IMG/VR virus record: IMGVR_UViG_3300025889_000070
Reading direction: 5' to 3' (one strand)
Origin: a virus
Lineage: Duplodnaviria; Caudoviricetes
Length of the DNA stretch: 64,000 nucleotides
This document shows, one piece after another, positions 5,259 through 22,089 of this stretch. The notes under the pieces were generated by a model. That model did no database searches, was not told the origin of the DNA, and worked only from the letters and a program-made list of their open reading frames with translations. The translations under genes and the position numbers were made by a program. Position 1 is the stretch's first letter. Each line of letters opens with the position of its first letter.

Positions 5259-5266
5259 AATAAATA
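5259..5266 (+). promoter_or_regulatory. T4-like late promoter (AATAAATA)
   Basis: Immediately upstream of the 1526-aa ORF. Confidence 0.5.
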
Positions 5267-5271
5267 CATGT

Positions 5272-8200
5272 ATGCGTATACATGAAGCAATCCAGCAAGT
5301 TGTAGCTATATATCCTGGCAGATTTCACCCTTTCCACAAAGGTCACGCCAGTGTTTATACCTATCTACGCAATAAATTTGACACTGTCTTTATTGCTACC
5401 AGCGACAAGGTAGACCCCCCTAAAAGTCCTTTTAGTTTTGCTGAAAAGCGACAAATGATGATCGCGGCCGGAGTACCAGCGTCAGCTATTGTCCAAACTA
5501 AAAATCCCTATCAAGCACAGGAAATATTACAAGCCTATGATCCTGCTACAACAGCGGTTGTGTTTGCTGTAAGTGAAAAGGACATGGCTGAAGATCCGCG
5601 GTTTGCTTTTAAACCTAAAAAAGATGGGTCACCCAGTTATTTCCAACCCATGGCACCAAACGCAAAACAGTTACAAACCTTTGACAAGCATGGGTATATT
5701 ACAACCGTTCCCACACTAGACTTTACAGTACTAGGCGAACCCATGCGTAGCGCCACAGAACTACGTAGTAATTTTGCCGCGGCAGATGAAGAAACAAAAA
5801 AGAAAATAATTACTGATCTCTACGGCAAATATGACGACAATGTCTACAAAATTATGAGTACTAAGATCACTGAAGCAGAAGAAGATGATTCGTTTAAATA
5901 CCTGTCAAAAGCAGGCGATCCAGTTTATGGACATTCAGTGTTTGGCGGAAACAAAGGTGTAGCAGTTAAAGCATATAAAAACTTAAATCATATTATTAAC
6001 GATCTTAAAGAACTTGACCTAGAACAAAAATTGGACAAGGAAACAAAACGTAGAATATTACAACAGATAGAAGATATCAAGAACATTATATTAAGAATAC
6101 AAACAGAAAGCCAGATGCTGGAAGATTATGATAGACTGGGCGGTATTATTAAACGTATCTGGACACTAGACTTACAACGCCCTCTCAGTGAAGATGTAAA
6201 AAAGAATGTAATAAAGAATATTAGACTGGCAACAGAGGCATGGAGCGCAAAGTACAAGCGTAGCATAGACTGTGATAATCCACGAGGATTTAGTCAACGT
6301 GCTCACTGCCAAGGTCGTAAGAAAACAGAAAGTTTCCCTGATTTAGATATTGAAGATCTAGAAAAAGAAGAAAAGAGACAAAAAAAATTAAGAAGGCAGC
6401 GTGATTTAGACAAAATCCTTAGAGACATGGAGGGTATACAGCAGCAACTAGATCCTAGAGAATATCCAGGTATAGATGTGGACGTCTATAGACAAAGAAG
6501 GAAAAAATTCCGGAAGGACAATAAACCTTATTTGATCACTGGTTTGGATCAAGAAGAATTAGATGAAGGCGACTTAATACCCTTTCCAGATGATACAATA
6601 GTAATTGATAACGAAAGCGATCAGGACTGGTACGAACTTGGCAAAGACATTAGTGACCTTAGTAAGGCGAACAAACGGCACTATGGACATGCTAATTCAG
6701 ATACTATTATGAGTTTTATGGGTCCTGAAGAAATGAAGTTTGTTAGAGATAGAATTTCCAAGTTTACCGGCCTAAAAAATGCTATTACAAAACATACTCC
6801 TTACTATGAACTTACAAGGGAACAACAGGAAAGTTTATTAGGGAAAGTAAAAGATCTTACAGAGACAATTCGTAATATCCACAGTAAGTTAGCGGAAGGA
6901 TTTTCTCAACCACGATTTGATGTAGAATGGGAAGAAGCAAATCGTTATCCAGAGTTTCGAAAGATTGGCAAAGAAGCATGGATTGAACTTGCTAAAACTG
7001 GTCGGGCAGTAACCATTACAGATGCAAGTGATATTGAGAATACAGATGCAGCAGACCCAGATAGTTTCAAATCATTAGATCCAAACAAACAAAAACGTGC
7101 TCTGGCACAACTGGAAAAAGACAACGTTGAGATGCCAATCGTTGCTGTATATAGCGATGGCTACAAAGAACTAATTGGCGGCAATACAAGACTTACTGCT
7201 ATGATGGCTAAAAATGGTCAGGCAACTATATGGCAGTTTGAGGTTCCGGATTCTGTTGCAGAACTAGCGCAAGGTGTGGCGGAGTCAATTCGTAAGACTG
7301 GTAGTCAGTATACTGTTTACAGTAAAAAGGGTAAGCGCATGGGCACTTATCCCAGTAAAAAGCAGGCTAAGAAAAGACTACAGCAGATTGAATATTTTAA
7401 GCATGTTGGCGAGAGTAAGGACAACAATACAAGTCAAGGTTTTTTAGATAAAATTAAAATTGTAATTGACAAATTCATAGACAACAAAAACAGTGGAAAC
7501 ATGGATAGACTCGCCATGGATAAAAAAGAGCTTAACCAGGCAATTACCGCAGCAGCAAACAAGTATGGCGTGGATCCTGAAATTGCTATTAAAGTAGCAC
7601 AAGCAGAAGGTGGCACAATTTATCAAAGTAATATTATAAAAGGAAACAAACGAGAACGCAGTTACGGACCATTCCAACTTTACAAAGATGGTGGACTTGG
7701 CAATGAATATGAAAAAGAATATAATACTGATTTAAGTAAAGAAAATAGTCCTGAACTAATAAAAAGACAAATCGATTTTGCAATGAGAAAAGCAAAAGAG
7801 TTAGGCTGGAAACCCTGGTACGGCGCCGCTCGTGTAGGCATCGGAGATCGAGAAGGATTAGATACTCAAAAAATTTCAATAGGCGTTAATACTGCTCAAG
7901 CAGCCCAACCACCTAAGACAGATGTTACAGATTTTGAAAAAGCACTTCAAAGAGTGCAAAGTAAATTAAAAGAAGACGTTGCCAAAGACGTCAAAGATTT
8001 AGAAGCAGAGTTTCCCGGATTATACTTAGACTTATATAAAACAAAAGCAGGTTACATACTTGGCAAAATAGAACTACCTAAACAAGAACGTGGTTCGGGC
8101 ATTGGTACACGAGTTATGCAACGAATCGTTGACATAGCAGACAGTGAAGGTGAAGTTGTTGCACTAACGCCCGATACAGCATTTGGTGCTAGCAGTAAAG

Positions 8201-9852
8201 GCAGACTCGAAAAGTTCTACAAGCGTTTTGGTTTCGTATTCAACAAAGGACGCAACAAACATTATAGTTTTAGAGAAACAATGATTCGCTATCCTCAGGG
8301 CCCTGAAGCACGAGCAACAGTAAAAGATATAGCAGGCGAATCTCAACTAAATGAACGTGCTACTGATATAGTCTATCACTATACCACAATTGGCCCAGCA
8401 TTAAACATTTTAAAATCCGGTGAGTTTCAGTTAAGCAGCGTAGTAGGTGTCGATTCCGAGCAGGCTATTAATCCCCAGGGTTATAACTTTTTTCTAAGCA
8501 CTGCCCGCAGCAAAGGTGGCGAATACCACAGTAGAGTTGGCAATTCAGCAGTAATGTTTGTATTGAATGGACGTTGGATTAGTGATCGTTATCCAGTTAA
8601 ACCAGTGGATTATTGGGCTGGGTTCTCTATTGCTGGGCGTAACAAAGAAGCAGAGGATCGTATATTCAGCAAAGATCCTACTATGCCCATAGACCCTGTT
8701 ACAAGTATACATGTTTTACTAAAAGAAAAGCATCCATTTGCTAGTGCTAAGACCAGACAATTCATAATACAGGCAAAAATACTGGGTATACCAACTTACT
8801 TGTATAAAGATGAATCTGCGTGGAAATTACAGAATACTGCCAAAGCAGCCAGTGTAGAGCAAATGAAAAGTGAACTAAGTGGCCCAGAAACGTTTCGCAG
8901 TGGTGGTAGCGGATCGCGCTGGTTAAAACCCTGGCTTGAAGTTATATTTGGCAAAACCGACGCCGATCTAGGTAAAAAAGCTAAAGACTTGGTAAGAGGT
9001 TTCCGCTATTATCATAACGATGGCGATGACCACGGACTAGGAAATGAACTTAGCAATGCTAGAAAGCCAGGCAATTTAGACCGAGAAGATGCGGTTAAGA
9101 TTCTAAAGTTTATGCGACAGAATCGTATGGCCACACACAAAGATCTAGTAAACTATCTAGTAGACAAGTGGAAAGTAAAAGACGAATCCATAAACGAAGC
9201 AGGTGTTGGGCGTATTACTAAACAGAACGCAACCAAAGACGCACCAATTGGTAGCGAGTATGCAAACGTTAAGAAGCTAGGTTTGGGTAGTGGTAAGCCC
9301 AAAGAGCTACATGTTAAAGCAAGAAAGAATTCAGATCCCAATACACTATTCAATCTTGGACTTGCAGAAGACAAACATCGTGACGTTATAGTTCACTTTG
9401 TTGGATTTTGCCAGGATAAACTTAACCTGCCCAGTTTGCCAAAAATAACTGTAGCAGATAAAATTGATGACACAACCTTTGGTCAATATGATACAGAAAA
9501 TAAAGACATATGTGTAAGAACCGGTGACAGGCATATAATGGATGTGCTGAGAACACTAGCACACGAACTTGTACATCACAAACAGAGAACAATAACACCT
9601 GATTTAGATGGTAGCGATGGCAGTGATCATGAAAATCAAGCCAATGCTGTTGCTGGAGTACTACTAAGAAAGTATGGACAAAAGCATCCAAAACTATACG
9701 AACATCTACAGGAGAGAGCCAGCATAGGAATACCATTAAGCAGTGGACTTACAGTTACCCTAGCACCACATAGAGCTCTAAAGATTAAAAAATCCACGAA
9801 GGGGAGGCACAGCTATGAAAACCCTAAAACTAAACGAAAAAATTCTAAATGA
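5272..9852 (+). CDS. multi-domain putative head-internal polyprotein: HxGH nucleotidyltransferase, ParB-like, lytic transglycosylase, GNAT, ADP-ribosyltransferase-like, HExxH metallopeptidase
   Basis: GRFHPFHKGH; ELIGGNTRLTA; AANKYGVDPEIAIKVAQAEG..SYGPFQL; RGSGIGTRVM..FYKRFGF; VYHYTT..FLSTAR..EAEDRI; RTLAHELVHHKQ. Domains are separated by (I/L/V)-x-E motifs. Confidence 0.75.
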   Translation: MRIHEAIQQVVAIYPGRFHPFHKGHASVYTYLRNKFDTVFIATSDKVDPPKSPFSFAEKRQMMIAAGVPASAIVQTKNPYQAQEILQAYDPATTAVVFAVSEKDMAEDPRFAFKPKKDGSPSYFQPMAPNAKQLQTFDKHGYITTVPTLDFTVLGEPMRSATELRSNFAAADEETKKKIITDLYGKYDDNVYKIMSTKITEAEEDDSFKYLSKAGDPVYGHSVFGGNKGVAVKAYKNLNHIINDLKELDLEQKLDKETKRRILQQIEDIKNIILRIQTESQMLEDYDRLGGIIKRIWTLDLQRPLSEDVKKNVIKNIRLATEAWSAKYKRSIDCDNPRGFSQRAHCQGRKKTESFPDLDIEDLEKEEKRQKKLRRQRDLDKILRDMEGIQQQLDPREYPGIDVDVYRQRRKKFRKDNKPYLITGLDQEELDEGDLIPFPDDTIVIDNESDQDWYELGKDISDLSKANKRHYGHANSDTIMSFMGPEEMKFVRDRISKFTGLKNAITKHTPYYELTREQQESLLGKVKDLTETIRNIHSKLAEGFSQPRFDVEWEEANRYPEFRKIGKEAWIELAKTGRAVTITDASDIENTDAADPDSFKSLDPNKQKRALAQLEKDNVEMPIVAVYSDGYKELIGGNTRLTAMMAKNGQATIWQFEVPDSVAELAQGVAESIRKTGSQYTVYSKKGKRMGTYPSKKQAKKRLQQIEYFKHVGESKDNNTSQGFLDKIKIVIDKFIDNKNSGNMDRLAMDKKELNQAITAAANKYGVDPEIAIKVAQAEGGTIYQSNIIKGNKRERSYGPFQLYKDGGLGNEYEKEYNTDLSKENSPELIKRQIDFAMRKAKELGWKPWYGAARVGIGDREGLDTQKISIGVNTAQAAQPPKTDVTDFEKALQRVQSKLKEDVAKDVKDLEAEFPGLYLDLYKTKAGYILGKIELPKQERGSGIGTRVMQRIVDIADSEGEVVALTPDTAFGASSKGRLEKFYKRFGFVFNKGRNKHYSFRETMIRYPQGPEARATVKDIAGESQLNERATDIVYHYTTIGPALNILKSGEFQLSSVVGVDSEQAINPQGYNFFLSTARSKGGEYHSRVGNSAVMFVLNGRWISDRYPVKPVDYWAGFSIAGRNKEAEDRIFSKDPTMPIDPVTSIHVLLKEKHPFASAKTRQFIIQAKILGIPTYLYKDESAWKLQNTAKAASVEQMKSELSGPETFRSGGSGSRWLKPWLEVIFGKTDADLGKKAKDLVRGFRYYHNDGDDHGLGNELSNARKPGNLDREDAVKILKFMRQNRMATHKDLVNYLVDKWKVKDESINEAGVGRITKQNATKDAPIGSEYANVKKLGLGSGKPKELHVKARKNSDPNTLFNLGLAEDKHRDVIVHFVGFCQDKLNLPSLPKITVADKIDDTTFGQYDTENKDICVRTGDRHIMDVLRTLAHELVHHKQRTITPDLDGSDGSDHENQANAVAGVLLRKYGQKHPKLYEHLQERASIGIPLSSGLTVTLAPHRALKIKKSTKGRHSYENPKTKRKNSK

Positions 9853-10138
9853 GGAGAAACTATATGATGAACAATTACAACAATGCCTGGAAGAACTTGA
9901 ACAACTCATTGAAGATTTTAAAGGTCGTGCCAAACCTGGTAGTAGGCCAGGAAGTCTAAAGAGAAAAGCAAGTCAGTATTTAGGCAAAGGCGTAGGAGAT
10001 AAGTTAAGTAAAAGTGAACTAAGACGACTTAGAGCTAAGGCAAACAAAATGAAAACTTCTGATAAAAAAGAAGAGCGTGATCGTGGCATACAACTGGGTC
10101 GTCAAGTAAGTTTTGCTTTTAACATGCGGAAAGAATAA
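9815..10138 (+). CDS. basic putative internal head protein
   Basis: Strong GGGGAGG SD; LNE/LIE motifs followed by a Lys/Arg-rich segment. Confidence 0.6.
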   Translation: MKTLKLNEKILNEEKLYDEQLQQCLEELEQLIEDFKGRAKPGSRPGSLKRKASQYLGKGVGDKLSKSELRRLRAKANKMKTSDKKEERDRGIQLGRQVSFAFNMRKE

Positions 10139-10401
10139 TGAAACTAGTATGTGAAATACACACAAAAGACAGTTCTAATACTCCCAGTTATAGAGTTTAT
10201 GTTAACGGCGAGTTAATGACGGAACGTGATTATGTTGTTCCAGAAACAGAGCAGGGACACTATAACTTTGTGTGTGATCTAGATTTACCAGCCGGCGAAA
10301 ATAAACTGGAAGTTGTAGGTATAAATCATGAGTTCGGACTGGGTAAAATGTGGCTGGATAGACGAAAGATTATTCACAACCAGGGAGTATTTACGTTATG
10401 A
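10138..10401 (+). CDS. hypothetical protein
   Basis: 87-aa ORF with TAATG coupling to the upstream gene. Confidence 0.6.
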   Translation: MKLVCEIHTKDSSNTPSYRVYVNGELMTERDYVVPETEQGHYNFVCDLDLPAGENKLEVVGINHEFGLGKMWLDRRKIIHNQGVFTL

Positions 10402-10589
10402 AAATTCATGAACTATTGGAAACAGCAAGTACCGGCGCTACAACAAGTGGTAATATTGCCACTGTAGCTAATCCCAGTGTAGCCCGGTCAAACGGCAAGC
10501 CAAAAATGCAAAAACCCACTGACAATGCCCTAGACAATGATGTCAACTTGTTTAGTGGTGGTGCTATCAAACGTAATAAGCAGCGTTAG
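10398..10589 (+). CDS. small putative internal head protein
   Basis: N-terminus MKIHELLE resembles neighbouring N-termini. Confidence 0.55.
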   Translation: MKIHELLETASTGATTSGNIATVANPSVARSNGKPKMQKPTDNALDNDVNLFSGGAIKRNKQR

Positions 10590-10597
10590 CATAAATA
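10590..10597 (+). promoter_or_regulatory. T4-like late promoter (CATAAATA)
   Basis: Intergenic NATAAATA motif. Confidence 0.55.
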
Positions 10598-10621
10598 CAC
10601 ATATAACTTGCAGGGATTCAT

Positions 10622-11170
10622 ATGGATAACTTTAGACATTTAATTGATTTAATTGACACTAACTCCAGCAATACTTTGACTGAGTCTCAAACCCAGCTAG
10701 TTCATGAATGGATAGTTGATTTTTTACATGATCATATTACCAAAGAGGAACTGCTTATAAAGATAGATGAATCTGGTTTAGATAGAGAACAAGTTAAGGA
10801 AGCCTTTTGGGCACCATTCACTGCGTTAGCGGGTGCGGGCATCGGCGCCGCGGCCGTTGCAGCTGATAAAGGTCTCAATCCATTAAAATGGAGCAAAGGT
10901 GACTGGGCTAGCATAGGCACAGATGCCGCATTAGGTGCTACTGGTGCAGGATTAGCTGGAGTAGCAGGTCGTGCTCTAGCAAAAACAGGAGCCAAAAAGG
11001 GCGGGCAGTGGCTTGCTAAAAAACTTACTGGCACCAATGCAACTAAAGCAGCAGCAAATGTAACAAACAAACAAATAGCTAAAAATGCGGCCAAGACTGG
11101 AGGAAAATGGGGTGCTACTACCGCAGCTATAGATAGTGGCATTAATCTTATGGGCGCCGGCAGCGCATAA
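10622..11170 (+). CDS. putative internal/ejection protein with Gly/Ala-rich hydrophobic helices
   Basis: LTE and VKE motifs, then glycine-zipper-like ALAGAGIGAAAVAA and AALGATGAGLAGVAG. Confidence 0.55.
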   Translation: MDNFRHLIDLIDTNSSNTLTESQTQLVHEWIVDFLHDHITKEELLIKIDESGLDREQVKEAFWAPFTALAGAGIGAAAVAADKGLNPLKWSKGDWASIGTDAALGATGAGLAGVAGRALAKTGAKKGGQWLAKKLTGTNATKAAANVTNKQIAKNAAKTGGKWGATTAAIDSGINLMGAGSA

Positions 11171-11191
11171 TGTATATACAGGGAAATAGTA

Positions 11192-12400
11192 ATGAGATTT
11201 AATGAATTTAATAATACATTAACAGAACAAGAAAAACATGTTAATCACCAGCTAAAACTCTTTTTGGAAGGTTCTATCACAAAACAAGATTTTATAGAAA
11301 CTTTGCAAAAAAGCAAACTTGATGAAATCGACTTCACGAAATTGGCTAAGTTAGGCAGTGCAGGTTGGGGAAAGGTCCAGGACTTTTTTTCAGGTGCAGG
11401 AAAAGGTTTTGGTGGTGCATCGGGTCAAGCACGGGACCAGGCTGGGCGATACGTTAGTAAAGGCAGCGCAATGCAGAGAGGGCAAAATGTTGGCGGAGCT
11501 GTTCGAAACAATCCCGGTAAGGTTGCCGCCGGCGCCGCGGCCGCCGGCGCGGTCGCCGGATCAGCATTAGGAAACAATGATATCGTTGACGCAAACACAG
11601 CCATGGCTGCTCCAACAACTGCTCCAGCTAACATGGATGATAGTAGTTTTGGCAAAGCATTTGCAGCAGCACGTAAACAACACGGCGGCCCTGGTGGTAA
11701 ATTTACATGGCGTGGTAAAGAATATCAAACAAATGTCAAAGGCGAAAAGTACGTAAAAAATCCAACAGCAGTTAGCTTTGGCGGTTCAGCGAATCCTCCA
11801 AGAAAACCAGCTACAGGACCAGGTGGGGGACAAGGTGAGACACCTGTTCAATCTGGTGGCGCAGCCGGCGAGTTTGGTGGAACTCCAACAACTACTCAAA
11901 CACCTGTTCAATCTGGTGGTGCAGCCGGCGAGTTTGGTGGAACTCAAACAACTACTCCAACACCTGTTCAATCTGGTGGTGCAGCCGGCGAGTTTGGTGG
12001 AACTCAAACAACTACTCCAACACCCGCTCAACCAGCTACAGGACCAACTGATAATCAAATAGCAACAAGAATACTAGCAAGAACCGCTGCTAAAGACTTA
12101 ACAGGTAAAGATTTATCAAATCAAGAACTTCTAAGAGGATTAAAAGCAGACATAAAAAAGGGTGGAGTAGGCACGGCAGGATTGATGCAAAAAATGCGTA
12201 ATATTGAGAGAGGTGACATGGGCGATGATAGTGAATTTGCTGATACTGGTGCAATGACTAGAAAAACTGAAAAAATGCCTAAAGCGTTTGGCATTGGACC
12301 GCGTGTTGATGATACAAAAGGTGGTGAAACAGTTAAAACTCCGTTTGGATTTAGTTATAAAACTCTACCAAAAGCCAATGATCTTAGCGATAGAAATTAA
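11192..12400 (+). CDS. putative internal head protein with low-complexity repeats
   Basis: MRFNEF..LTE N-terminus; SFGKAFAAARK..GKFTWRGKEY module; 20-aa tandem repeats. Confidence 0.6.
   Translation: MRFNEFNNTLTEQEKHVNHQLKLFLEGSITKQDFIETLQKSKLDEIDFTKLAKLGSAGWGKVQDFFSGAGKGFGGASGQARDQAGRYVSKGSAMQRGQNVGGAVRNNPGKVAAGAAAAGAVAGSALGNNDIVDANTAMAAPTTAPANMDDSSFGKAFAAARKQHGGPGGKFTWRGKEYQTNVKGEKYVKNPTAVSFGGSANPPRKPATGPGGGQGETPVQSGGAAGEFGGTPTTTQTPVQSGGAAGEFGGTQTTTPTPVQSGGAAGEFGGTQTTTPTPAQPATGPTDNQIATRILARTAAKDLTGKDLSNQELLRGLKADIKKGGVGTAGLMQKMRNIERGDMGDDSEFADTGAMTRKTEKMPKAFGIGPRVDDTKGGETVKTPFGFSYKTLPKANDLSDRN
11840..12019 (+). repeat. 3 x 60-bp in-frame tandem repeat (TPVQSGGAAGEFGGTxTTTx)
   Basis: Units start at 11840, 11900 and 11960 (acacctgttcaatctggtgg...). 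Confidence 0.95.
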
Positions 12401-12414
12401 TAGGATTTTATACG

Positions 12415-13446
12415 ATGAAAGACATACTAGACAAACTTGATAATATTATAAACGAAGGCATGCTGGGTGATATGGCTCATGCCTGTGAAGCAGATCATGA
12501 AGTTCAAATGGCCCGAGCAGACCTTTACAAAATTGCCAAGTATGCTATTAAACTACACGACATAATGAAGAGTGTTAGTGAAATTCAGGGTATCCAGGGC
12601 TGGCAACAGGCAAAGATTACCAAAGCTGCTGATTATTTGAGCAGTGTATATCACAACATGGACTATGAAATGAGTCCACTTAATCAGCCTGAAGTAGAAC
12701 CTGATGAGGCAATGCAGCGGATGGCTTTTGATCTTGCTAGTGAAAGCAAAGAGACAGTTAAAGAAAGTAGAATGAGCTACAGTGATGCAGAAAAATTAGG
12801 CAGCGCCGGCGCAAGTAAAATTGATAATGTTCTTCGTAGAAAAATTTATGACATGGGCAAAGACATCAGAGACATTGAGCCTGGCACTTTAGATAGGATG
12901 AGATATCAGGTGGCAAAAGAACTAGGACTTGTTGAATCTATAGAAATTGATGAGGGTTCGAAAACATTTGGTTCTGCTAGGAAAAAGGCAGAGGCTAGCA
13001 GACAACGAGCAATAGAAAAAGCAAAGAGATGGATGAAGTCTACTGGGAAATCCGCCGAGGACGCAGTAAAAGAATTTGATTTGTTTCCTAGTGATATTAG
13101 AAAACTCAAAGAAGAAGCAGGGTATACCGACGAAGAACGTAAAGCTATGGACGATTTAGTTAATTCACTTGGAGCACTTGGAGGTCATAGGGATATGAAG
13201 AAGCCTAGATATGACCCAGATATGGTGAAGAAGCCTGGATATGACCCAGATATAATCGTGCAGCAGCCTAGATATGACCCAGATATGGTGAAGAAGCCTG
13301 GATATGACCCACGGGTCTATGACCCGGGTATGGAACGTGATCGTACACAAGGTTTAGATCAAGATTTTAGCAAGCGTGTGCAACAACAAAATCAAAAGAA
13401 TATGAAGTTAAACAATAGTAAATTCAGCGATTGGGGTAAAAAATAA
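12415..13446 (+). CDS. putative internal head protein
   Basis: IINE, VKE, IDE and LKE motifs; DHEVQMARADLYKIAKYAIKLH..GWQQAKITKAADYLSSVYH helical module; YDP repeats. Confidence 0.6.
   Translation: MKDILDKLDNIINEGMLGDMAHACEADHEVQMARADLYKIAKYAIKLHDIMKSVSEIQGIQGWQQAKITKAADYLSSVYHNMDYEMSPLNQPEVEPDEAMQRMAFDLASESKETVKESRMSYSDAEKLGSAGASKIDNVLRRKIYDMGKDIRDIEPGTLDRMRYQVAKELGLVESIEIDEGSKTFGSARKKAEASRQRAIEKAKRWMKSTGKSAEDAVKEFDLFPSDIRKLKEEAGYTDEERKAMDDLVNSLGALGGHRDMKKPRYDPDMVKKPGYDPDIIVQQPRYDPDMVKKPGYDPRVYDPGMERDRTQGLDQDFSKRVQQQNQKNMKLNNSKFSDWGKK
13198..13332 (+). repeat. about 4 x 30-33-bp in-frame repeat (KKPxYDPDMV)
   Basis: aagaagcct(a/g)gatatgacccagatat repeated. Confidence 0.9.
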
Positions 13447-13967
13447 TGAGCGATTTTGCAAGTTTAGTAGCAAAGCTAAATGAAATTAGTGCCAATGAGG
13501 ACACGCTAACAGAAAGTGAAGTCTCCGGAGTAAACCTTTATCAGCCTGTGGAAACCATTAAGGGCACAAAATCTACTGCTAATATCCTACGCAAGTTTAG
13601 TGAAATACAGGATGAGATTATTGCTGAAGAACGTCAAATGGAAGAAGATGTTGTAAGTGATATCCGTACACGTTACAGCGACTTTATGAAAAGCGAAACA
13701 GCCCAAGGCAACGATCTAAACACAATCAATGTTGCAGTTAAAGAAGCAACGAGTTCTGCAATGGCTATTGATGATAGTTTTAACAAAATGTTTAATATGA
13801 TGGACCGCTTGTTGAAAGTAACAGGAGAAGATGCTGTTCTCAGTAGAATGGTAGAGCGTGAAGGCGGTGATCCTTCATGGATTGCAGACGCACATCAAAA
13901 ACTCGTTGAAGCTATGGAAGCTCTAGAAGAAGCTCATATGTATGCTGTTAGAGAATTAGAGAAATAA
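13446..13967 (+). CDS. acidic helical hypothetical protein, putative head-internal
   Basis: LNE, LTE and VKE motifs; coupled to the upstream stop. Confidence 0.55.
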   Translation: MSDFASLVAKLNEISANEDTLTESEVSGVNLYQPVETIKGTKSTANILRKFSEIQDEIIAEERQMEEDVVSDIRTRYSDFMKSETAQGNDLNTINVAVKEATSSAMAIDDSFNKMFNMMDRLLKVTGEDAVLSRMVEREGGDPSWIADAHQKLVEAMEALEEAHMYAVRELEK

Positions 13968-13970
13968 AAA

Positions 13971-15728
13971 ATGACCAATCCTACACAAATTCGTAAATAT
14001 ATAAATATTTTACTAGAAGCTACTCAGTCTTCTAACTTAAAACAAAATTATGAAAAGTTGCTAGCAACCCTAGAATTAACACCAGGCAGCGATGAAGGAT
14101 TCTTTGGCAGAAATTTTCGTAACAATCGTAACAATGAAAAACTAGCTCAGTTTGCAAGAGATAATAATTTACCTGGCATGTTTAATCCTGAAACTGGTCG
14201 TTTTGTCAAGTTCGGTGAAGACCCCGAAGGCGCCGGGCCCACTGATACAGTTGATGATGCTGCACTCGCTAGTATGGATGATCTAGAACAACTAGCGGCT
14301 ATTGGAGCTCTCCCTGCTAATGTAGTAGACGAGCTTAATCAGGAAGTAGAATATTATGATACTGGAGAAAGAAGTTTATCCAGAAGAGATATTTTAGGTA
14401 ATATTTTTGGTGATCCAAATCCCGAGTATAGAGACAGACTTTTAGGCATTCTTAAGAAAAATCAAGGAGGTGCTAAGAAAGACGTCCAACCTAAAAGTAA
14501 ATCCCAACCTAACAAAGAACTAGACATAGGCGCTGATAAAGATATGCCCAAGGGTGGAACTGCTCCGGTTAGCCCTGTACAAGGACCTGAGGAACTACCT
14601 GACCTTCCACCTAACCCCCTGGATGCACCTGAGGCACCATCAAGCGCAGGAAGTAAACCAGATGATATTCCAGCTAGCCCCCTGGATGCACCTGAGGCAC
14701 CATCAAGCGCAGGAAGTAAACCAGATGATATTCCAGCTAGCCCCATGGATGCACCAGATGCAGCATCAAGCGCAAGAAGTAAACCCGATCCTAATGTAAA
14801 TCCTTTAGCAAATAAACCAGGCGATTATACTGGTGCAGATGGTATAGAAGATATGGGCACAGGAATGTTTGTTAAGCCTGAGCCTTCTAATAAAGAACTA
14901 GACATAGACGCTGATAAGGCTATTAAACCTAAAAAAGCATCATTATCCTCTGAACCAGACCCATCAAGTAAATATTTCGGAAAGAGCGGACATATGGGCC
15001 AAAAGAGCAAGGCAGAAATAAAGGCTCTTCAAACACAACTTAAAAACGCAGGGTATAATCCTGGCGACGCAGATGGTATTATAGGCAAGAATACAACGGC
15101 TGCGATCAAAAAATTACAAAGGGATTCCGGAATAGCAGTTGATGGATTATTTGGTAAAGATTCCCTGAATGCATTAGCACAAAAATTGCGTAATGATTCT
15201 ACAATTAAAGAACAAATGGAAACATTTCTTAATGAAGGACCAGAGGAGAAAAAAGCTGTAGTAGACGCAATTAGAAAATTAGGCACTACTGATGAAGTAA
15301 GACAGTGGATGGGTCAACAAGGACATAATCTAGATAATATGTCAGATGATGAAGTTGTTAGCAATATTATTAGACCTTACTATAAAGCAGCAATGATGGG
15401 CGGTATTCAAGCAAAAAGAATGGGAATAGATCCTAAAAAAATTGATTCTCTTGTAAGTCAAGCTAAGAACATGCTTCCATTAGCTGGTTTAGCTCAGCTG
15501 GTCGGATACAAGCCCAGTGTTGGTTTGCGTGGTAAAGTGACTACGCCTGGTTTGGACAAAGTTAGACCTGCTGTGATTGACGTTGATCCAAGTGCTAGTG
15601 ATGTTCAAACAGCGGTTGATGTTTATGATAAATTGCGTGGAAATTTTCCAAAAGCAGCAGATATGTTTGACCAGGGAGAATATAAAAACGCCATCTATCA
15701 AATATATAAACGCATGGCAGACAAGTAA
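13971..15728 (+). CDS. putative internal protein with peptidoglycan-binding (PG_binding_1-like) domain and Pro-rich repeats
   Basis: IKALQTQLKNAGYNPGDADGIIGKNTTAAIKKLQRDSGIAVDGLFGKDS is a typical PG-binding domain. Confidence 0.7.
   Translation: MTNPTQIRKYINILLEATQSSNLKQNYEKLLATLELTPGSDEGFFGRNFRNNRNNEKLAQFARDNNLPGMFNPETGRFVKFGEDPEGAGPTDTVDDAALASMDDLEQLAAIGALPANVVDELNQEVEYYDTGERSLSRRDILGNIFGDPNPEYRDRLLGILKKNQGGAKKDVQPKSKSQPNKELDIGADKDMPKGGTAPVSPVQGPEELPDLPPNPLDAPEAPSSAGSKPDDIPASPLDAPEAPSSAGSKPDDIPASPMDAPDAASSARSKPDPNVNPLANKPGDYTGADGIEDMGTGMFVKPEPSNKELDIDADKAIKPKKASLSSEPDPSSKYFGKSGHMGQKSKAEIKALQTQLKNAGYNPGDADGIIGKNTTAAIKKLQRDSGIAVDGLFGKDSLNALAQKLRNDSTIKEQMETFLNEGPEEKKAVVDAIRKLGTTDEVRQWMGQQGHNLDNMSDDEVVSNIIRPYYKAAMMGGIQAKRMGIDPKKIDSLVSQAKNMLPLAGLAQLVGYKPSVGLRGKVTTPGLDKVRPAVIDVDPSASDVQTAVDVYDKLRGNFPKAADMFDQGEYKNAIYQIYKRMADK
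14616..14790 (+). repeat. about 3 x 63-bp in-frame tandem repeat (PLDAPEAPSSAGSKPDDIPAS)
   Basis: Units start at 14616, 14679 and 14742; the third is diverged. Confidence 0.9.
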
Positions 15729-15739
15729 TAAGAGTTATT

Positions 15740-16132
15740 ATGCGTTTTACAGAAATTATAGAGGGCAAAAAAGATGCTTGCTATCGCAAAGTAAAATCAC
15801 GCTACAAAGTATGGCCCAGTGCATATGCTAGCGGTGCTCTTGTAAAGTGTCGCAAGGTTGGTGCTAAAAACTGGGGAAATAAGACCCAGGAAGATGTACA
15901 AGAAGATTTACAGAAGTGGTTTAAAGAAAAGTGGGTACGTTTTGGACCTGATGGTAAGATCCGTGGAGACTGTGCTAGAGATAATGACAGTGAAGGTAAA
16001 CCCAAGTGTTTACCACAGAAAAAAGCACATGCACTAGGTAAAAAGGGACGTAAGAAAGCAGCCAGTAGAAAGCGCAGAGAAGATCCTAAAAAGAACAGAC
16101 GCGGCAAGGCAAAGAATGTGAAAACAAAATGA
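15740..16132 (+). CDS. very basic putative internal head protein
   Basis: MRFTEIIE N-terminus; ACYRKVKSRYKVWPSAYASGALVKCRK and LQKWFKEKWV..PKCLP modules. Confidence 0.6.
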   Translation: MRFTEIIEGKKDACYRKVKSRYKVWPSAYASGALVKCRKVGAKNWGNKTQEDVQEDLQKWFKEKWVRFGPDGKIRGDCARDNDSEGKPKCLPQKKAHALGKKGRKKAASRKRREDPKKNRRGKAKNVKTK

Positions 16133-16686
16133 GATTTTCAGAAATTATACACAAACCCTCACCAGTTGAACTAGCAATTAAAGAACATATTGCTCAGTGC
16201 GTTCCTTTTAGTGAATGCATGTTCCGTCCGGGTAGTCGAGCATTTACAGAGTTTTATACTCGTGTGCGTGAGATGCGTGAAAGCCTTGACCTAGATTGGC
16301 AGGATCAAGAACTACTTGATACAGACATTGGTGAATGCATTGTGGTAGAGGGTGAGCGTGTTCCTCTTGATGTTCCTATTGCCGAAGAAGTTGAACTTGA
16401 TGAAGCAGAGTATCAAGGACGCAAAGTTAAACTAAATTCACCCAAGCGTGGCGGTTCTAAGAAGTATTACGTATACGTAAAGAATCCCAAAACTGGCAAA
16501 GTTAAAAAAGTTAGCTGGGGTGACACAACTGGTTTAAGTACCAAGGCTAAAAACCGTGGCGCAGTTCGTAGTTTTGTAGCCAGACATAAATGTAAACAAA
16601 AAAACGATAAAACTAAAGCAGGATACTGGGCATGTCGTACACCACGTTATAAAGCACTTGGTGTCAAAGGCGGACAGTGGTGGTGA
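16129..16686 (+). CDS. putative internal head protein
   Basis: MRFSEII N-terminus; after LDE comes AEYQGRKVKLNSPKRGGSKKYYVYVKNPKTGKVKKVSWGD..YWACR. Confidence 0.6.
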   Translation: MRFSEIIHKPSPVELAIKEHIAQCVPFSECMFRPGSRAFTEFYTRVREMRESLDLDWQDQELLDTDIGECIVVEGERVPLDVPIAEEVELDEAEYQGRKVKLNSPKRGGSKKYYVYVKNPKTGKVKKVSWGDTTGLSTKAKNRGAVRSFVARHKCKQKNDKTKAGYWACRTPRYKALGVKGGQWW

Positions 16687-19437: not shown

Positions 19438-22089
19438 ATGTATGTCGACGCTCATTTTGATCGAGACCATGATAGAATTAACATAGTAGAGCGTGTAGGG
19501 GGTAGAAGAGAGTATCGCGAATTCCCTGTTAACTACATATTCTACTACAATGATCCGCGTGGTAAACACAGGACAATCTATGGCAATCCTGTAAGTAGGT
19601 TTAGCACCAGAAATGGAAAAGAGTTCCAAAAAGAACTTAAGATTCATGGCAAGCATGGACTCTGGGAAAGTGATATTAATCCAGTATTCAGATGTTTAGC
19701 GGAAAACTATCTAGGTTCAGATGCTCCAAAACTAAACGTAGCATTTTTTGACATTGAAGTGGACTTTGACCCTGAGCGTGGATATAGCACGCCTGATGAT
19801 CCTTTTAATACTATTACAGCAATTACAGTATACATGGATTGGCTTAACCGACTTGTAACGCTGGCTATTCCACCCAAGAGTATGAGTATACAAACTGCCC
19901 AGGAAACTGTTGCTGACTTTGATAATACATTCTTATTTGAACGTGAAGATAATTTACTAGAAGCATTCTTGGACTTGATTGAAGATGCAGATATCCTCAG
20001 TGGTTGGAACAGTGAGGGTTATGATATTCCCTACACAGTTAACAGGATTACCAGAGTACTCAGCAAGGATGATACCAGACGTTTCTGCTTATGGGGACAG
20101 TATCCAAAGCAGCGGACGTTTGAAAGATTTGGCGCAGAAAATATTACCTTTGATTTAATTGGCAGGCAGCATTTAGATTACATGCAACTGTACCGCAAAT
20201 ACACATATCATGAGATGCACAGTTACAGTTTAGATGCTATCGGTGAATATGAACTCAATGAACGTAAGGTTACCTACGAAGGTACATTGGATCAACTATA
20301 TAATCAAGACTTTTATACATTCATTGACTATAACAGACAAGACACAATGCTGTTACATAAGTTGGATACTAAACTAAAATTTATTGATTTGGCAAACGAA
20401 CTTGCTCATGCTAACACTGTGTTATTACCAACTACCATGGGCGCGGTAGCTGTTACAGAACAGGCTATTATTAACCATGCACACGAACAAGGATTGGTTG
20501 TCCCTAACAAGAAAAAGCCGGACGAAAATCATAATAAAGCAGCAGGTGCTTATGTAGCCAAGCCCAAGGTCGGACTACATGACTGGATTGGCAGTATTGA
20601 CTTAAACAGTCTGTATCCCAGTGTTATCAGAGCACTAAACATGGCTCCTGAAACTATTGTAGGGCAACTACGTCCAGTTATAACTGATAAATCTATCCAA
20701 GCAGTGCTAGCACAAAAAGGCACATTTAGTGATGCCTGGGATGGCGAGTTTGGTAGTAAAGAATATCAAGCAGTCATGAACATGGAAGTGGGCACTGAGA
20801 TCACTATTGACTGGGAGAGTGGCGATAGTGATATATTAAGCGCAGCAGATACATGGCGGTTAATCTTTGACAGCAACAATCCCTGGATACTAAGTGCTAA
20901 CGGTACAATACTAACCTATGAAAAGAAGGGCATTGTTCCCGGGTTGCTGGAACGCTGGTATGCTGAACGTAAAGAACTACAGGCAAAGATGCGTGAAGCA
21001 ACTGGGGAGGAACGTGCTTTCTGGGACAAGCGACAGCTGGTAAAGAAAATTAACTTGAACAGTTTGTATGGCGCCATCCTAAATCCATACTGCCGCTTCT
21101 TTGATCATCGTATTGGCCAAAGCACTACACTGACTGGTAGATGTATTGCTAAACACATGAGCGCACAGGTTAACAAATTACTTACTGACAAATATGATCA
21201 TCAGGGAGATTGTATTATCTATGGTGACACAGACAGTGTGTACTTTAGTGCCTGGCCGGTGATACAAGAACAAGTAGAATCTGGCAAAATGAAATGGGGC
21301 AAAGACGAATGCATTCAACTTTATGACCAACTTGGTGAAGCAGTTAACGAAACATTCGCAGCGTTTATGGAACGTGCTTTTCATTGTCCAAGAAGCTATG
21401 GTGAAATTATTGCTGCGGCTAGAGAAATTGTAGCAACCAAGGGCTTGTATATTACCAAGAAACGCTATGCTGCTCTGGTTATTGACACAGAGGGTTTCCG
21501 CAGTGACATGGACGGCAAGCCAGGCAAAGTTAAAGCCATGGGACTTGATCTCAAGCGCAGTGATACACCCAAGTATATGCAGGACTTTCTCATGGAATTG
21601 CTGATTGATGTGCTTACTGGCAAGCAAGAAGATCATATTGTAGAACGTATTAAAGATTTTAAATACCAATTCAAGGACAAACCAGGCTGGGAAAAAGGCA
21701 CACCCAAGCGTGTTAACAACCTAACAATGTATAGTGCTAGAGAACGTGCAGAAGGTAAAACAAACATGCCGGGACATGTAAGGGCAGCAATGAACTGGAA
21801 CTATCTACGCAAACTTCATGGCGACAACTACAGCCAGCAAATAGTAGATGGCATGAAAACCATTGTGTGTAAACTTAAAGATAATCCACTGGGATATACA
21901 AGTGTAGGCTATCCAACAGATGAGACTACACTTCCTAAATGGTTCAAAGACCTGCCTTTCGATGAGAGTGCCATGGAAGATGCTATCGTAGATCAAAAGA
22001 TAGACAACTTGCTCAGCGAGCTAAACTGGAATCTTAAAGAAAAAACACAGACCAAGAATACATTTGACGATTTGTTTACGTTTGGATAA
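19438..22089 (+). CDS. polB: family B DNA polymerase with 3'-5' exonuclease (T4 gp43-like)
   Basis: ExoI FDIE, ExoII GWNSEGYDIPY, ExoIII YNRQD; motifs DLNSLYPS, KINLNSLYG, YGDTDS, TKKRY. Confidence 0.97.
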   Translation: MYVDAHFDRDHDRINIVERVGGRREYREFPVNYIFYYNDPRGKHRTIYGNPVSRFSTRNGKEFQKELKIHGKHGLWESDINPVFRCLAENYLGSDAPKLNVAFFDIEVDFDPERGYSTPDDPFNTITAITVYMDWLNRLVTLAIPPKSMSIQTAQETVADFDNTFLFEREDNLLEAFLDLIEDADILSGWNSEGYDIPYTVNRITRVLSKDDTRRFCLWGQYPKQRTFERFGAENITFDLIGRQHLDYMQLYRKYTYHEMHSYSLDAIGEYELNERKVTYEGTLDQLYNQDFYTFIDYNRQDTMLLHKLDTKLKFIDLANELAHANTVLLPTTMGAVAVTEQAIINHAHEQGLVVPNKKKPDENHNKAAGAYVAKPKVGLHDWIGSIDLNSLYPSVIRALNMAPETIVGQLRPVITDKSIQAVLAQKGTFSDAWDGEFGSKEYQAVMNMEVGTEITIDWESGDSDILSAADTWRLIFDSNNPWILSANGTILTYEKKGIVPGLLERWYAERKELQAKMREATGEERAFWDKRQLVKKINLNSLYGAILNPYCRFFDHRIGQSTTLTGRCIAKHMSAQVNKLLTDKYDHQGDCIIYGDTDSVYFSAWPVIQEQVESGKMKWGKDECIQLYDQLGEAVNETFAAFMERAFHCPRSYGEIIAAAREIVATKGLYITKKRYAALVIDTEGFRSDMDGKPGKVKAMGLDLKRSDTPKYMQDFLMELLIDVLTGKQEDHIVERIKDFKYQFKDKPGWEKGTPKRVNNLTMYSARERAEGKTNMPGHVRAAMNWNYLRKLHGDNYSQQIVDGMKTIVCKLKDNPLGYTSVGYPTDETTLPKWFKDLPFDESAMEDAIVDQKIDNLLSELNWNLKEKTQTKNTFDDLFTFG

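Follow-up and report, generated by a model that had tools for sequence, protein, structure and literature searches.

A chain of unrelated modules in one open reading frame

We analysed a stretch of viral DNA of 64,000 nucleotides (Duplodnaviria; Caudoviricetes; IMG/VR record IMGVR_UViG_3300025889_000070), called here the window, and focused on the gene at 5272..9852 (+), the product of which is referred to as P0001. A first-pass annotation had described this gene as one open reading frame (ORF) of 1526 residues, and had read its product as a toolkit that is cut by a prohead protease inside the phage head and injected into the host. The frame is indeed single and uninterrupted (1526 aa), and it lies in DNA with a G+C content of 39.5% in which nearly all genes share one strand. 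All twelve of the hydrophobic-x-Glu motifs that had been listed were present (12/12). Numbered by the Glu at P1, they are IHE5-A, ITE201-A, ATE322-A, LDE432-G, LAE542-G and VAE671-S in the first half of the protein, and VGE714-S, LKE901-D, LNE1028-R, INE1309-A, LAE1366-D and LQE1481-R in the second. The modules that we distinguished are given below, together with the box in front of the gene; a slash marks the position directly after the Glu of a proposed junction, and CTS stands for capsid-targeting sequence.

5259..5266 (+): box AATAAATA, identical at 7/8 positions to TATAAATA, the consensus of T4 late promoters; it precedes the ATG by 5 nt, with no evident Shine-Dalgarno sequence
5272..5286 (+): N-terminal leader MRIHE/A, a short form of a CTS-like leader; orthologues start MRITE, MRISE, MKIYE and MKLYE
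5287..5874 (+): NMNAT/PPAT-type HxGH nucleotidyltransferase, aa 6-201, ending KITE201/A; homology to P0002 and L022 stops at this Glu
5875..6123 (+): module of unknown function, aa 202-284; an indel right after KITEA, missing from P0002, with no family match
6124..6237 (+): short module, aa 285-322, ending ATE322/A, conserved in relatives
6238..6330 (+): small basic Cys module WSxKYKxSIxCxNPxGFSQxAHC, aa 323-353, free-standing or behind leaders elsewhere
6331..6567 (+): charged, linker-like segment, aa 354-432, ending LDE432/G; homology to L024 resumes exactly at EGDLIPFP
6568..6897 (+): module of unknown function, aa 433-542, ending LTE531/TIR (truncated start of a 43-aa module) and then LAE542/G
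6898..7284 (+): ParB/Srx-fold module with GGNTR box, aa 543-671, ending VAE671/S, from an AlphaFold2 (AF2) model and Foldseek
7285..7413 (+): 43-aa basic module IRK...QIEYFKH, aa 672-714, ending VGE714/S, delimited by stand-alone ORFs and by Glu at -2
7414..7974 (+): putative lytic transglycosylase cassette, unconfirmed, aa 715-901, ending LKE901/D, missing from P0002 and P0003
7975..8340 (+): GNAT acetyltransferase cassette, aa 902-1023, with GPE1012/A and AGE1023/S at its end, from phrog_10691
8341..8355 (+): five-residue spacer SQLNE1028/R between two Glu sites, unstructured in the model
8356..9198 (+): ADP-ribosyltransferase (ART)-fold plus helical domain, aa 1029-1309, ending INE1309/A, from an AF2 model and PDB matches
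9199..9369 (+): small module GVGRITK...LFNLGL, aa 1310-1366, ending LAE1366/D; behind an N-terminal leader in L054, L044, L042, L027, L057 and L028
9370..9714 (+): HExxH metallopeptidase-like cassette, aa 1367-1481, ending LQE1481/R, missing from P0002, P0003 and L024
9715..9852 (+): conserved basic C-terminal tail, aa 1482-1526, and stop codon; the C-termini of P0001, P0002, P0003 and L024 are alike

Identities of the domains

The first large module (aa 6-201) matched the Pfam family CTP_transf_like (PF01467) with 32.6 bits against a cut-off of 21 and contains both the HxGH motif (PFHKGH) and the SxTxxR motif (SATELR), which bears out its earlier assignment as an HxGH nucleotidyltransferase. 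Its nearest solved structures are those of NMNAT and PPAT, the closest being the NMNAT 2qjt. No family match was obtained for the module that follows (aa 202-284).

The ParB-like domain that had been proposed is supported at the level of the fold. An AF2 model of aa 543-671, built from a 39-sequence alignment, had a pLDDT of 93.7, and 50/50 of the best Foldseek matches in the PDB were to proteins of the ParB/Srx fold (ParB-N, PadC, sulfiredoxin, Noc, SbnI, Osa and KorB), with weak E-values of 0.02-1. The GGNTR sequence (GxxR box) is invariant in the family of this module. The claim of an ART-like domain is likewise supported as a fold. Residues 1029-1309 gave an AF2 model with a pLDDT of 92 (66-sequence alignment) and are modelled as an ART fold with a helical domain behind it; the top PDB matches were DarT (E = 2e-4, probability 1.0), Tpt1/KptA and cholera toxin A1, at low TM-scores (0.33/0.46), and the Pfam ART model found no match in this segment. 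H1036, S1076, R1079, E1126, E1128, D1129 and R1130 are invariant in the family. On sequence alone, the conserved candidates for an H-Y-E or R-S-E triad are H1036, S1076..R1079, Y1114 and E1126-x-E1128.

The GNAT cassette (aa 902-1023) was recognised by phrog_10691 (E = 9e-28; a profile of 3925 positions) and scored below the Pfam threshold in P0001. A homologue in L026 that is 41% identical to it passes that threshold, and the two results together uphold the GNAT assignment. The GNAT of P0001 also matches the DarB-like/PLxRFG giant proteins. For aa 1367-1481, the HExxH motif (HELVH) and a match to the phrog_87 metallo-protease (E = 1e-5) favour the HExxH peptidase that had been claimed, while Pfam DUF6782 and Peptidase_M78 stayed below their cut-offs, so that we regard this cassette as a probable HExxH peptidase.

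The lytic transglycosylase (SLT) was the one domain that we could not confirm. Residues 715-901 resemble SLT in the motif AEGG...YGPFQL; tblastn aligned them to a podophage tape-measure protein (41%), phrog_19914 matched weakly (E = 8e-4), and there was no other support. No SLT match was obtained in Pfam or among PDB sequences, and the tape-measure homologue has no Pfam match either. Pfam searches with cut-out segments did not recover ParB, SLT or ART, and PDB sequence searches with the SLT and HExxH segments returned nothing useful. A language-model atlas gave weak leads to ParB_N and to DarT/PARP.

Cassettes are exchanged directly after Glu

Scans of IMG/VR and of metagenomes yielded orthologues of 864, 881, 1140 and 1261 aa and many smaller relatives; no DNA nearly identical to the P0001 gene was found by megablast among 50,697 phage records. 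A three-way alignment of P0001, P0002 and P0003 revealed that the same point, HVGE/S, is followed by the putative SLT and the GNAT in P0001 and by a Cu/Zn superoxide dismutase (SOD) in P0002, while P0003 passes straight to QLNE/R-ATD. The inserts in P0001 and P0002 both end in xE/S. The extra module after KITE/A is present in P0001 alone among the three, and the similarity of the GNAT ends at AGE-S. In L024 the ParB module occupies a different position and the similarity stops on Glu at both of its ends (VAE/FAE), and an intact 43-aa module follows at the point matching aa 531-542 of P0001. Homology of the GVGRI module ends on Glu (GLAE) in at least five different contexts. Related loci thus differ by swaps, losses and reordering directly after Glu, as the annotation would have it for cassettes gained or lost exactly at xE junctions, and the family does not have a fixed single-fold architecture, its members varying both in their cassettes and in the order of these.

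The HExxH cassette, bounded by LAE/D and LQE/R, is found in P0001 alone when compared with P0002, P0003 and L024, and this bears on how such a chain might be processed. The chain might be cut, ahead of packaging or once injected, by its own HExxH module or by a different protease of phage or host. The presence of the HExxH module in P0001 is consistent with this, as is the proximity of a ClpB-like AAA+ gene and a ClpP gene just upstream. Clp proteases are, however, not site-specific, and hundreds of leader-bearing single-domain proteins lack a peptidase. Processing by zincin-like peptidases has been predicted for polyvalent proteins, and DdrB of P1 is cut before packaging (PMC5512222); the junction motif, on the other hand, corresponds to the known specificity of gp21-type proteases (PMC9026906). 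We consider processing of this kind very unlikely, and the embedded HExxH module was rejected as the processor because relatives without it (P0002, P0003 and L024) keep the junction motifs.

Three further observations were made on these loci. The SOD of P0002 (L004:10001-13420) spans residues 542-674 (PF00080, E = 2e-45), and the same protein also contains DUF5661. The segment at 6862-6897 of the window (aa 531-542), LTE/TIR-NIHSKLAE, resembles the start of the 43-aa module, as if the ParB cassette had been inserted there and had truncated it. Five representatives of the family of the ART-like domain (P0006, P0008, P0011, P0004 and P0005) are long and 45-51% identical, with an HxGH-type nucleotidyltransferase first and the ART-like domain further on; this arrangement suggests that synthesis of NAD or a NAD-like nucleotide may be functionally paired with the ART-fold enzyme.

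Homology breakpoints are enriched at Glu

The density of [ILV]xE[AGS] motifs per 1000 aa is 4.6 in P0001, 7.1 in the gene cluster downstream of it and 1.9 in the other proteins of the window. Raw BLAST end-points were too ragged to reveal a Glu peak (enrichment of about 1.5-fold), and a test of trimmed breakpoints gave no enrichment of Glu at left ends (31/520 vs 26.6), because the conserved xE is itself included in the alignments. We therefore used breakpoint classes and counts anchored on modules. Among 45 independent classes of homology breakpoint, 16 end on Glu or Glu+1, compared with 6.9 expected (binomial p = 7e-4), so that the coincidence of domain boundaries with xE exceeds chance. The junction motif is also conserved across whole families exactly at module starts. 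It is this coincidence of Glu with module boundaries, and not the number of motifs, that carries the weight.

Leaders and internal junctions are equivalent

The T4 protease gp21 cleaves L/I-X-E sites behind the Glu, and the ten N-terminal residues of the internal protein IPIII are enough for head targeting (PMC9026906); this CTS is MKTYQEFIAE (PMC8442874). Over 150 representatives of the leaders found here, the consensus is M-[RK]-[IAL]-x-[ED]-[FLI]-[ILF]-[TEN]-E-[ASGR]. Leaders of relatives include MRITEA, MKLYEA, MRASEFLAE, MRATEFITE, MKIWELTE, MRWHEISE and MLVSEILNE, and in L026 the same nucleotidyltransferase stands behind the longer leader MRLFDLVE/N. By its consensus, the leader family of P0001 closely resembles the T4 CTS. 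The MRIHE N-terminus to which the annotation had drawn attention is present and yet not the whole of the feature, being a short form of a widespread T4-CTS-like N-terminal signal.

The internal junctions sit where a leader would end. Six unrelated modules (43-aa, Cys-KYK, GVGRI, NFADGK, ParB and ART) are found directly behind M-R/K-h-x-E-h-h-x-E/ (h, hydrophobic) in separate genes and behind h-x-E/ in fusions. Glu stands at -2 of the 43-aa module in 24/32 copies that are preceded by other sequence, with L, I or V at P3 in 23 of these 24; the eight exceptions come from unrelated contigs. On its downstream side, Glu occurs within 2-6 residues in 19/25 internal copies, and the module is also encoded by stand-alone ORFs of 44 aa starting M-IRK. 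The Cys module is internal behind ATE/A or MHE/A, follows the leaders MRATEFITE/K or MQLRELTE/A elsewhere, stands alone as MT-WS, and is also found in cultured cyanomyoviruses. Stand-alone proteins of the ParB module are about 135-220 aa long and carry leaders such as MRIAEIITE/S and MRAAEFITE/N, and they are often extended by one or two small basic modules.

The largest sample came from the ART-like domain, the family of which comprised 1,484 representative clusters in an exhaustive search. Of the 112 copies that we examined, 103 have (L/I)-x-E in front of the domain. Where the domain is N-terminal, Glu lies 8 residues before the invariant His in 73/78 copies and Leu or Ile 10 residues before it in 72/78; where it is embedded in a longer protein, Glu at -8 and L/I at -10 are found in 30/34. 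One protein, P0014, retains a complete internal MRANEFISE/ before its ART-like domain. In the model of this domain the junction residues precede the first strand, outside the folded core. Long members of the family carry NUDIX, ParB_N, LysM+SLT, GH19, NTP_transf_2, ART-PolyVal and 5'-nucleotidase cassettes. At L028:229-1407, three adjacent, overlapping small genes each have a CTS-like leader, whereas L024 and P0001 have the same modules as fusions. The window has leader-bearing genes of its own at 10398, 11192, 15740 and 16129, which start MKIHELLE, MRFNEF..LTE, MRFTEIIE and MRFSEII, respectively. The module behind MRFTEIIE/ is internal, behind VNE/A, in gp114 (700 aa) of S-CAM9, a cyanophage in culture.

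These counts have to be set against the possibility that P0001 is an injected polyvalent protein that stays largely uncut, losing at most its leader, and that the h-x-E motifs are flexible acidic linkers and preferred places of recombination, which would account for the breakpoints. Some polyvalent proteins do go unprocessed (N4 virion RNAP, ArdC and TraC1; PMC5512222), and strings repeated at the junctions (e.g., ETIR/ESIR flanking the ParB insert, or GES...GES) could provide microhomology. A recombination scar, however, leaves unexplained why the same motif ends the leaders of single-module genes, why a hydrophobic P3 is conserved when P2 and the codons vary, and why the same modules occur as separate adjacent genes in L028. 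We regard an uncut chain as rather unlikely.

Several observations concern the wider occurrence of these modules. The 43-aa module is a free-standing ORF of 43-47 aa on many unrelated contigs (L063, L067, L068, L076 and others), some as long as 841 and 969 kb. In T4 phages like RB43 and GAP161, ORFs labelled gp57B or 'RNA ligase' are about 41-44% identical to it, and Pfam gave a weak lead to Phage_Y01A. The genes with CTS-like leaders in the window form a cluster at 9815-16686, in which other genes have an early LNE, INE, LLE or LTE; a gene of this cluster at 13971-15728 encodes 585 aa, with a PG_binding_1 domain among them. The gp114 of Synechococcus phage S-CAM9 (L103:2273-4372) is listed as a 'hypothetical protein' of a T4-like cyanophage and adjoins a structural gene; small basic modules follow one another along it with xE motifs in between, three YEPEGE repeats among them.

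Lineage, prohead protease and promoter

A family-B DNA polymerase is encoded at 19438-22089, and its nearest relatives are those of the jumbo myoviruses Sinorhizobium phage Phosso (49%), Agrobacterium phage Atu_ph07 (45%) and Rak2/121Q-like phages (43%). By this polymerase, the window phage is placed as an uncultured jumbo phage of the T4 superfamily, on the T4/Rak2/Atu_ph07-like and not the phiKZ-like side. A related contig of 108 kb has a CheckV completeness of 31%, which suggests a genome size of about 350 kb for the lineage.

A prohead protease of the gp21 type (Peptidase_S77) was found in Vibrio phage K566 (E = 4e-98), which also encodes a homologue of the ART-like domain with a leader, starting MKKFNEFANELAE/A. 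Vibrio phage 6E35.1a, too, has an ART-like protein behind such a leader. Peptidase_S77 is also encoded by Phosso (E = 1e-27), the nearest relative by DNA polymerase. PF03420 and PF07068 were missing from the IMG/VR contigs of four relatives, which are 11-31% complete by CheckV.

P0001 is neighboured by Clp genes and genes of unknown function, followed by replication genes from 19438. The lack of head genes beside it in the window would fit a protein that is not virion cargo at all, such as a cytoplasmic multi-enzyme protein, or a core or scaffold protein that is degraded and expelled, with the leader serving translation initiation or stability. In T4, core proteins (gp22, gp67 and gp68) are likewise broken into pieces at L/I-x-E (PMC5694885, PMC9026906). 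Against this, the ART, GNAT, ParB, muralytic, NUDIX, nucleotidase and SOD cassettes are typical of injected effectors and not of scaffolds (PMC5512222), and the leader is very near to an experimentally defined capsid-targeting sequence. A role outside the virion cargo appears highly improbable to us.

Just upstream of the locus lie a gene for a ClpB/ClpA-D2-like AAA+ ATPase (AAA_2 + ClpB_D2-small; 56-946), which runs off the start of the window, and a gene for ClpP (PF00574, E = 8e-29; 1807-2355). The PHROG label 'head maturation protease' on 1807-2355 was rejected, this being an ordinary ClpP beside a ClpB-D2-like AAA+ gene.

The late promoter claimed for P0001 stood in part. The box AATAAATA is present at 5259-5266 and its position is conserved, lying 5 nt before the ATG in orthologues as TATAAATA in L002, L018 and L024, as CATAAATA in L022 and as AATAAATA in L004. 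Its match to TATAAATA is imperfect, and no perfect TATAAATA was found upstream of P0001. If the box is a late promoter of the T4 type, the transcript would be nearly leaderless. The conserved form of the box, 5 nt before the ATG and without a Shine-Dalgarno sequence, is (T/A/C)ATAAATA. In the whole window, perfect copies of TATAAATA number two (14000 and 22100) against 6.7 expected by chance, i.e., fewer.

Interpretation

We consider that P0001 is probably a CTS-addressed polyvalent polyprotein from which the prohead protease makes about 12-15 pieces, to be kept in the head and injected. The N-terminal leader of the T4-CTS type would take the precursor into the core of the prohead. There, a gp21-type Peptidase_S77 would cut after Glu in (L/I/V)-x-E, removing the leader and severing the chain at about 15 junctions. 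The products released would be an NMNAT-like nucleotidyltransferase, a ParB/Srx-fold protein, a putative muralytic enzyme, a GNAT, a DarT/Tpt1-like ART-fold enzyme and a metallopeptidase, together with small basic modules that may bind the packaged DNA. All of these would be ejected together with the genome. For the injected, prohead-cut toolkit that had been proposed, the sequences show the map of modules, the folds of four of them, the agreement of Glu motifs with module boundaries, the exchange of cassettes and the fused or split gene forms in relatives, the likeness of the leader to the T4 CTS and the occurrence of Peptidase_S77 in two cultured phages; the targeting of P0001, its cleavage, packaging and residence in the capsid, its injection and the targets of its enzymes are what we infer from these.

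Several points weigh against the reading of P0001 as a cleaved and packaged precursor. The search for the prohead protease, capsid and portal genes of the window phage was negative in the 64-kb window and in the contigs of four relatives (11-31% complete by CheckV). The leader MRIHE/A has 5 residues to its first Glu and is shorter than the 10-residue CTS of T4. Motif density by itself is only 2.4x background, which is weak evidence; P3 is atypical at the proposed sites KTE353, GPE1012 and AGE1023, and good matches to the motif (VSE102, LSE307 and LKE1152) fall within folded domains. Finally, 29/45 breakpoint classes do not end on Glu, many of these being ragged ends of weak alignments.

A wider reading is that a general rule holds in the T4 superfamily, from cyanomyoviruses to 350-kb jumbo phages, by which a CTS-type leader and a prohead-protease motif at every joint allow the genes of injected proteins to be freely fused, split, shuffled and replaced, because the head protease always restores separate products. 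We see the case for such a rule as evenly balanced. If it holds, the double-stranded DNA (dsDNA) phages would have a true polyprotein strategy, and thousands of unrecognised virion-delivered effectors could be predicted from genomes alone.

For P0001 and its relatives, the favoured reading as a head-processed polyprotein would have several consequences. Host defences are met first by the injected proteins, which are otherwise very hard to recognise; a leader M-R/K-h-x-E-h-h-x-E, or an internal h-x-E before a module, would identify them in uncultured phages. The dsDNA phages would share with RNA viruses the use of polyproteins, processed in their case by the capsid maturation protease, and it would be explained how effector cassettes can be swapped while delivery is left undisturbed. 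The cargo (NMNAT-like and DarT/Tpt1-like ART-fold enzymes, ParB/Srx, GNAT, SOD, NUDIX and 5'-nucleotidases) points to an early interference with host systems that depend on NAD or are based on nucleic acids. In laboratory phage-host systems, leader and junction together could extend the T4 CTS packaging tool to several cargos from one construct.

Comparison with known systems

In the papers searched we found both parent concepts, i.e., CTS/gp21 processing and polyvalent proteins, and no description of cargo polyproteins with prohead-protease joints. The polyvalent proteins (Iyer, Burroughs, Anand, de Souza, Aravind 2017, PMC5512222) are like P0001 in carrying many unrelated conflict domains per polypeptide, and packaging in the head and delivery along with the DNA have been predicted for them. 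Their repertoire of ART, GNAT, ParB, lysozyme/SLT, zincin-like peptidase, nucleotidyltransferase and NUDIX domains overlaps that of P0001 (PMC5512222). With its nucleotidyltransferase, ParB/Srx, GNAT, ART-fold, HExxH and putative muralytic modules, P0001 falls within the 2-15 unrelated conflict-type domains that characterise the class. Signature domains are shared as well: the GNAT through phrog_10691 and the DarB-like/PLxRFG proteins, and the ART-like domain through a family member with Pfam ART-PolyVal. The polyvalent proteins differ in that an embedded zincin-like metallopeptidase is predicted to be the processor and neither a CTS leader nor prohead-protease joints have been described for them, whereas the relatives of P0001 that lack the peptidase module keep the junction motif.

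Giant phages cut many of their head proteins after Glu, often repeatedly (PMC5694885). In phiKZ, 201phi2-1 and SPN3US, a gp21-related protease acts on many proteins inside the head behind the Glu of a three-residue motif, often at several sites per protein, and the propeptides act like a CTS (PMC5694885, PMC9026906, PMC10052503). In those phages, in contrast to P0001, the motif is S/A/G-x-E, the additional cuts mostly clear long propeptides, and no chain of enzymes from one precursor has been reported. In T4, gp22, gp67 and gp68 are single products that gp21 cuts at several L/I-x-E sites, with some of the peptides staying in the head; they differ from P0001 in being scaffold or core proteins without enzyme domains, most fragments of which leave the head.

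The closest likeness in the leader is to the internal proteins IPI, IPII and IPIII and to Alt of T4, which have a short leader of the same pattern (MKTYQEFIAE vs M-R/K-h-x-E-F/L/I-I/L-x-E) and are cut after Glu in L/I-x-E, the motif found at the joints of P0001. The T-even phages' internal proteins are diverse anti-defence proteins with the CTS as their sole common part (PMC3012670), and the P0001 family would likewise be a diverse, fast-changing cargo in which the leader alone is shared. Alt is an ART that is packaged in the head and injected (PMC3012670, PMC9026906, PMC5694885), and P0001 contains an ART-fold module. In T4, however, each cargo has a separate gene, one leader and one maturation cut, whereas P0001 unites up to about 12 unrelated cargo modules in one frame with the motif at every joint, and its relatives have them fused or split.

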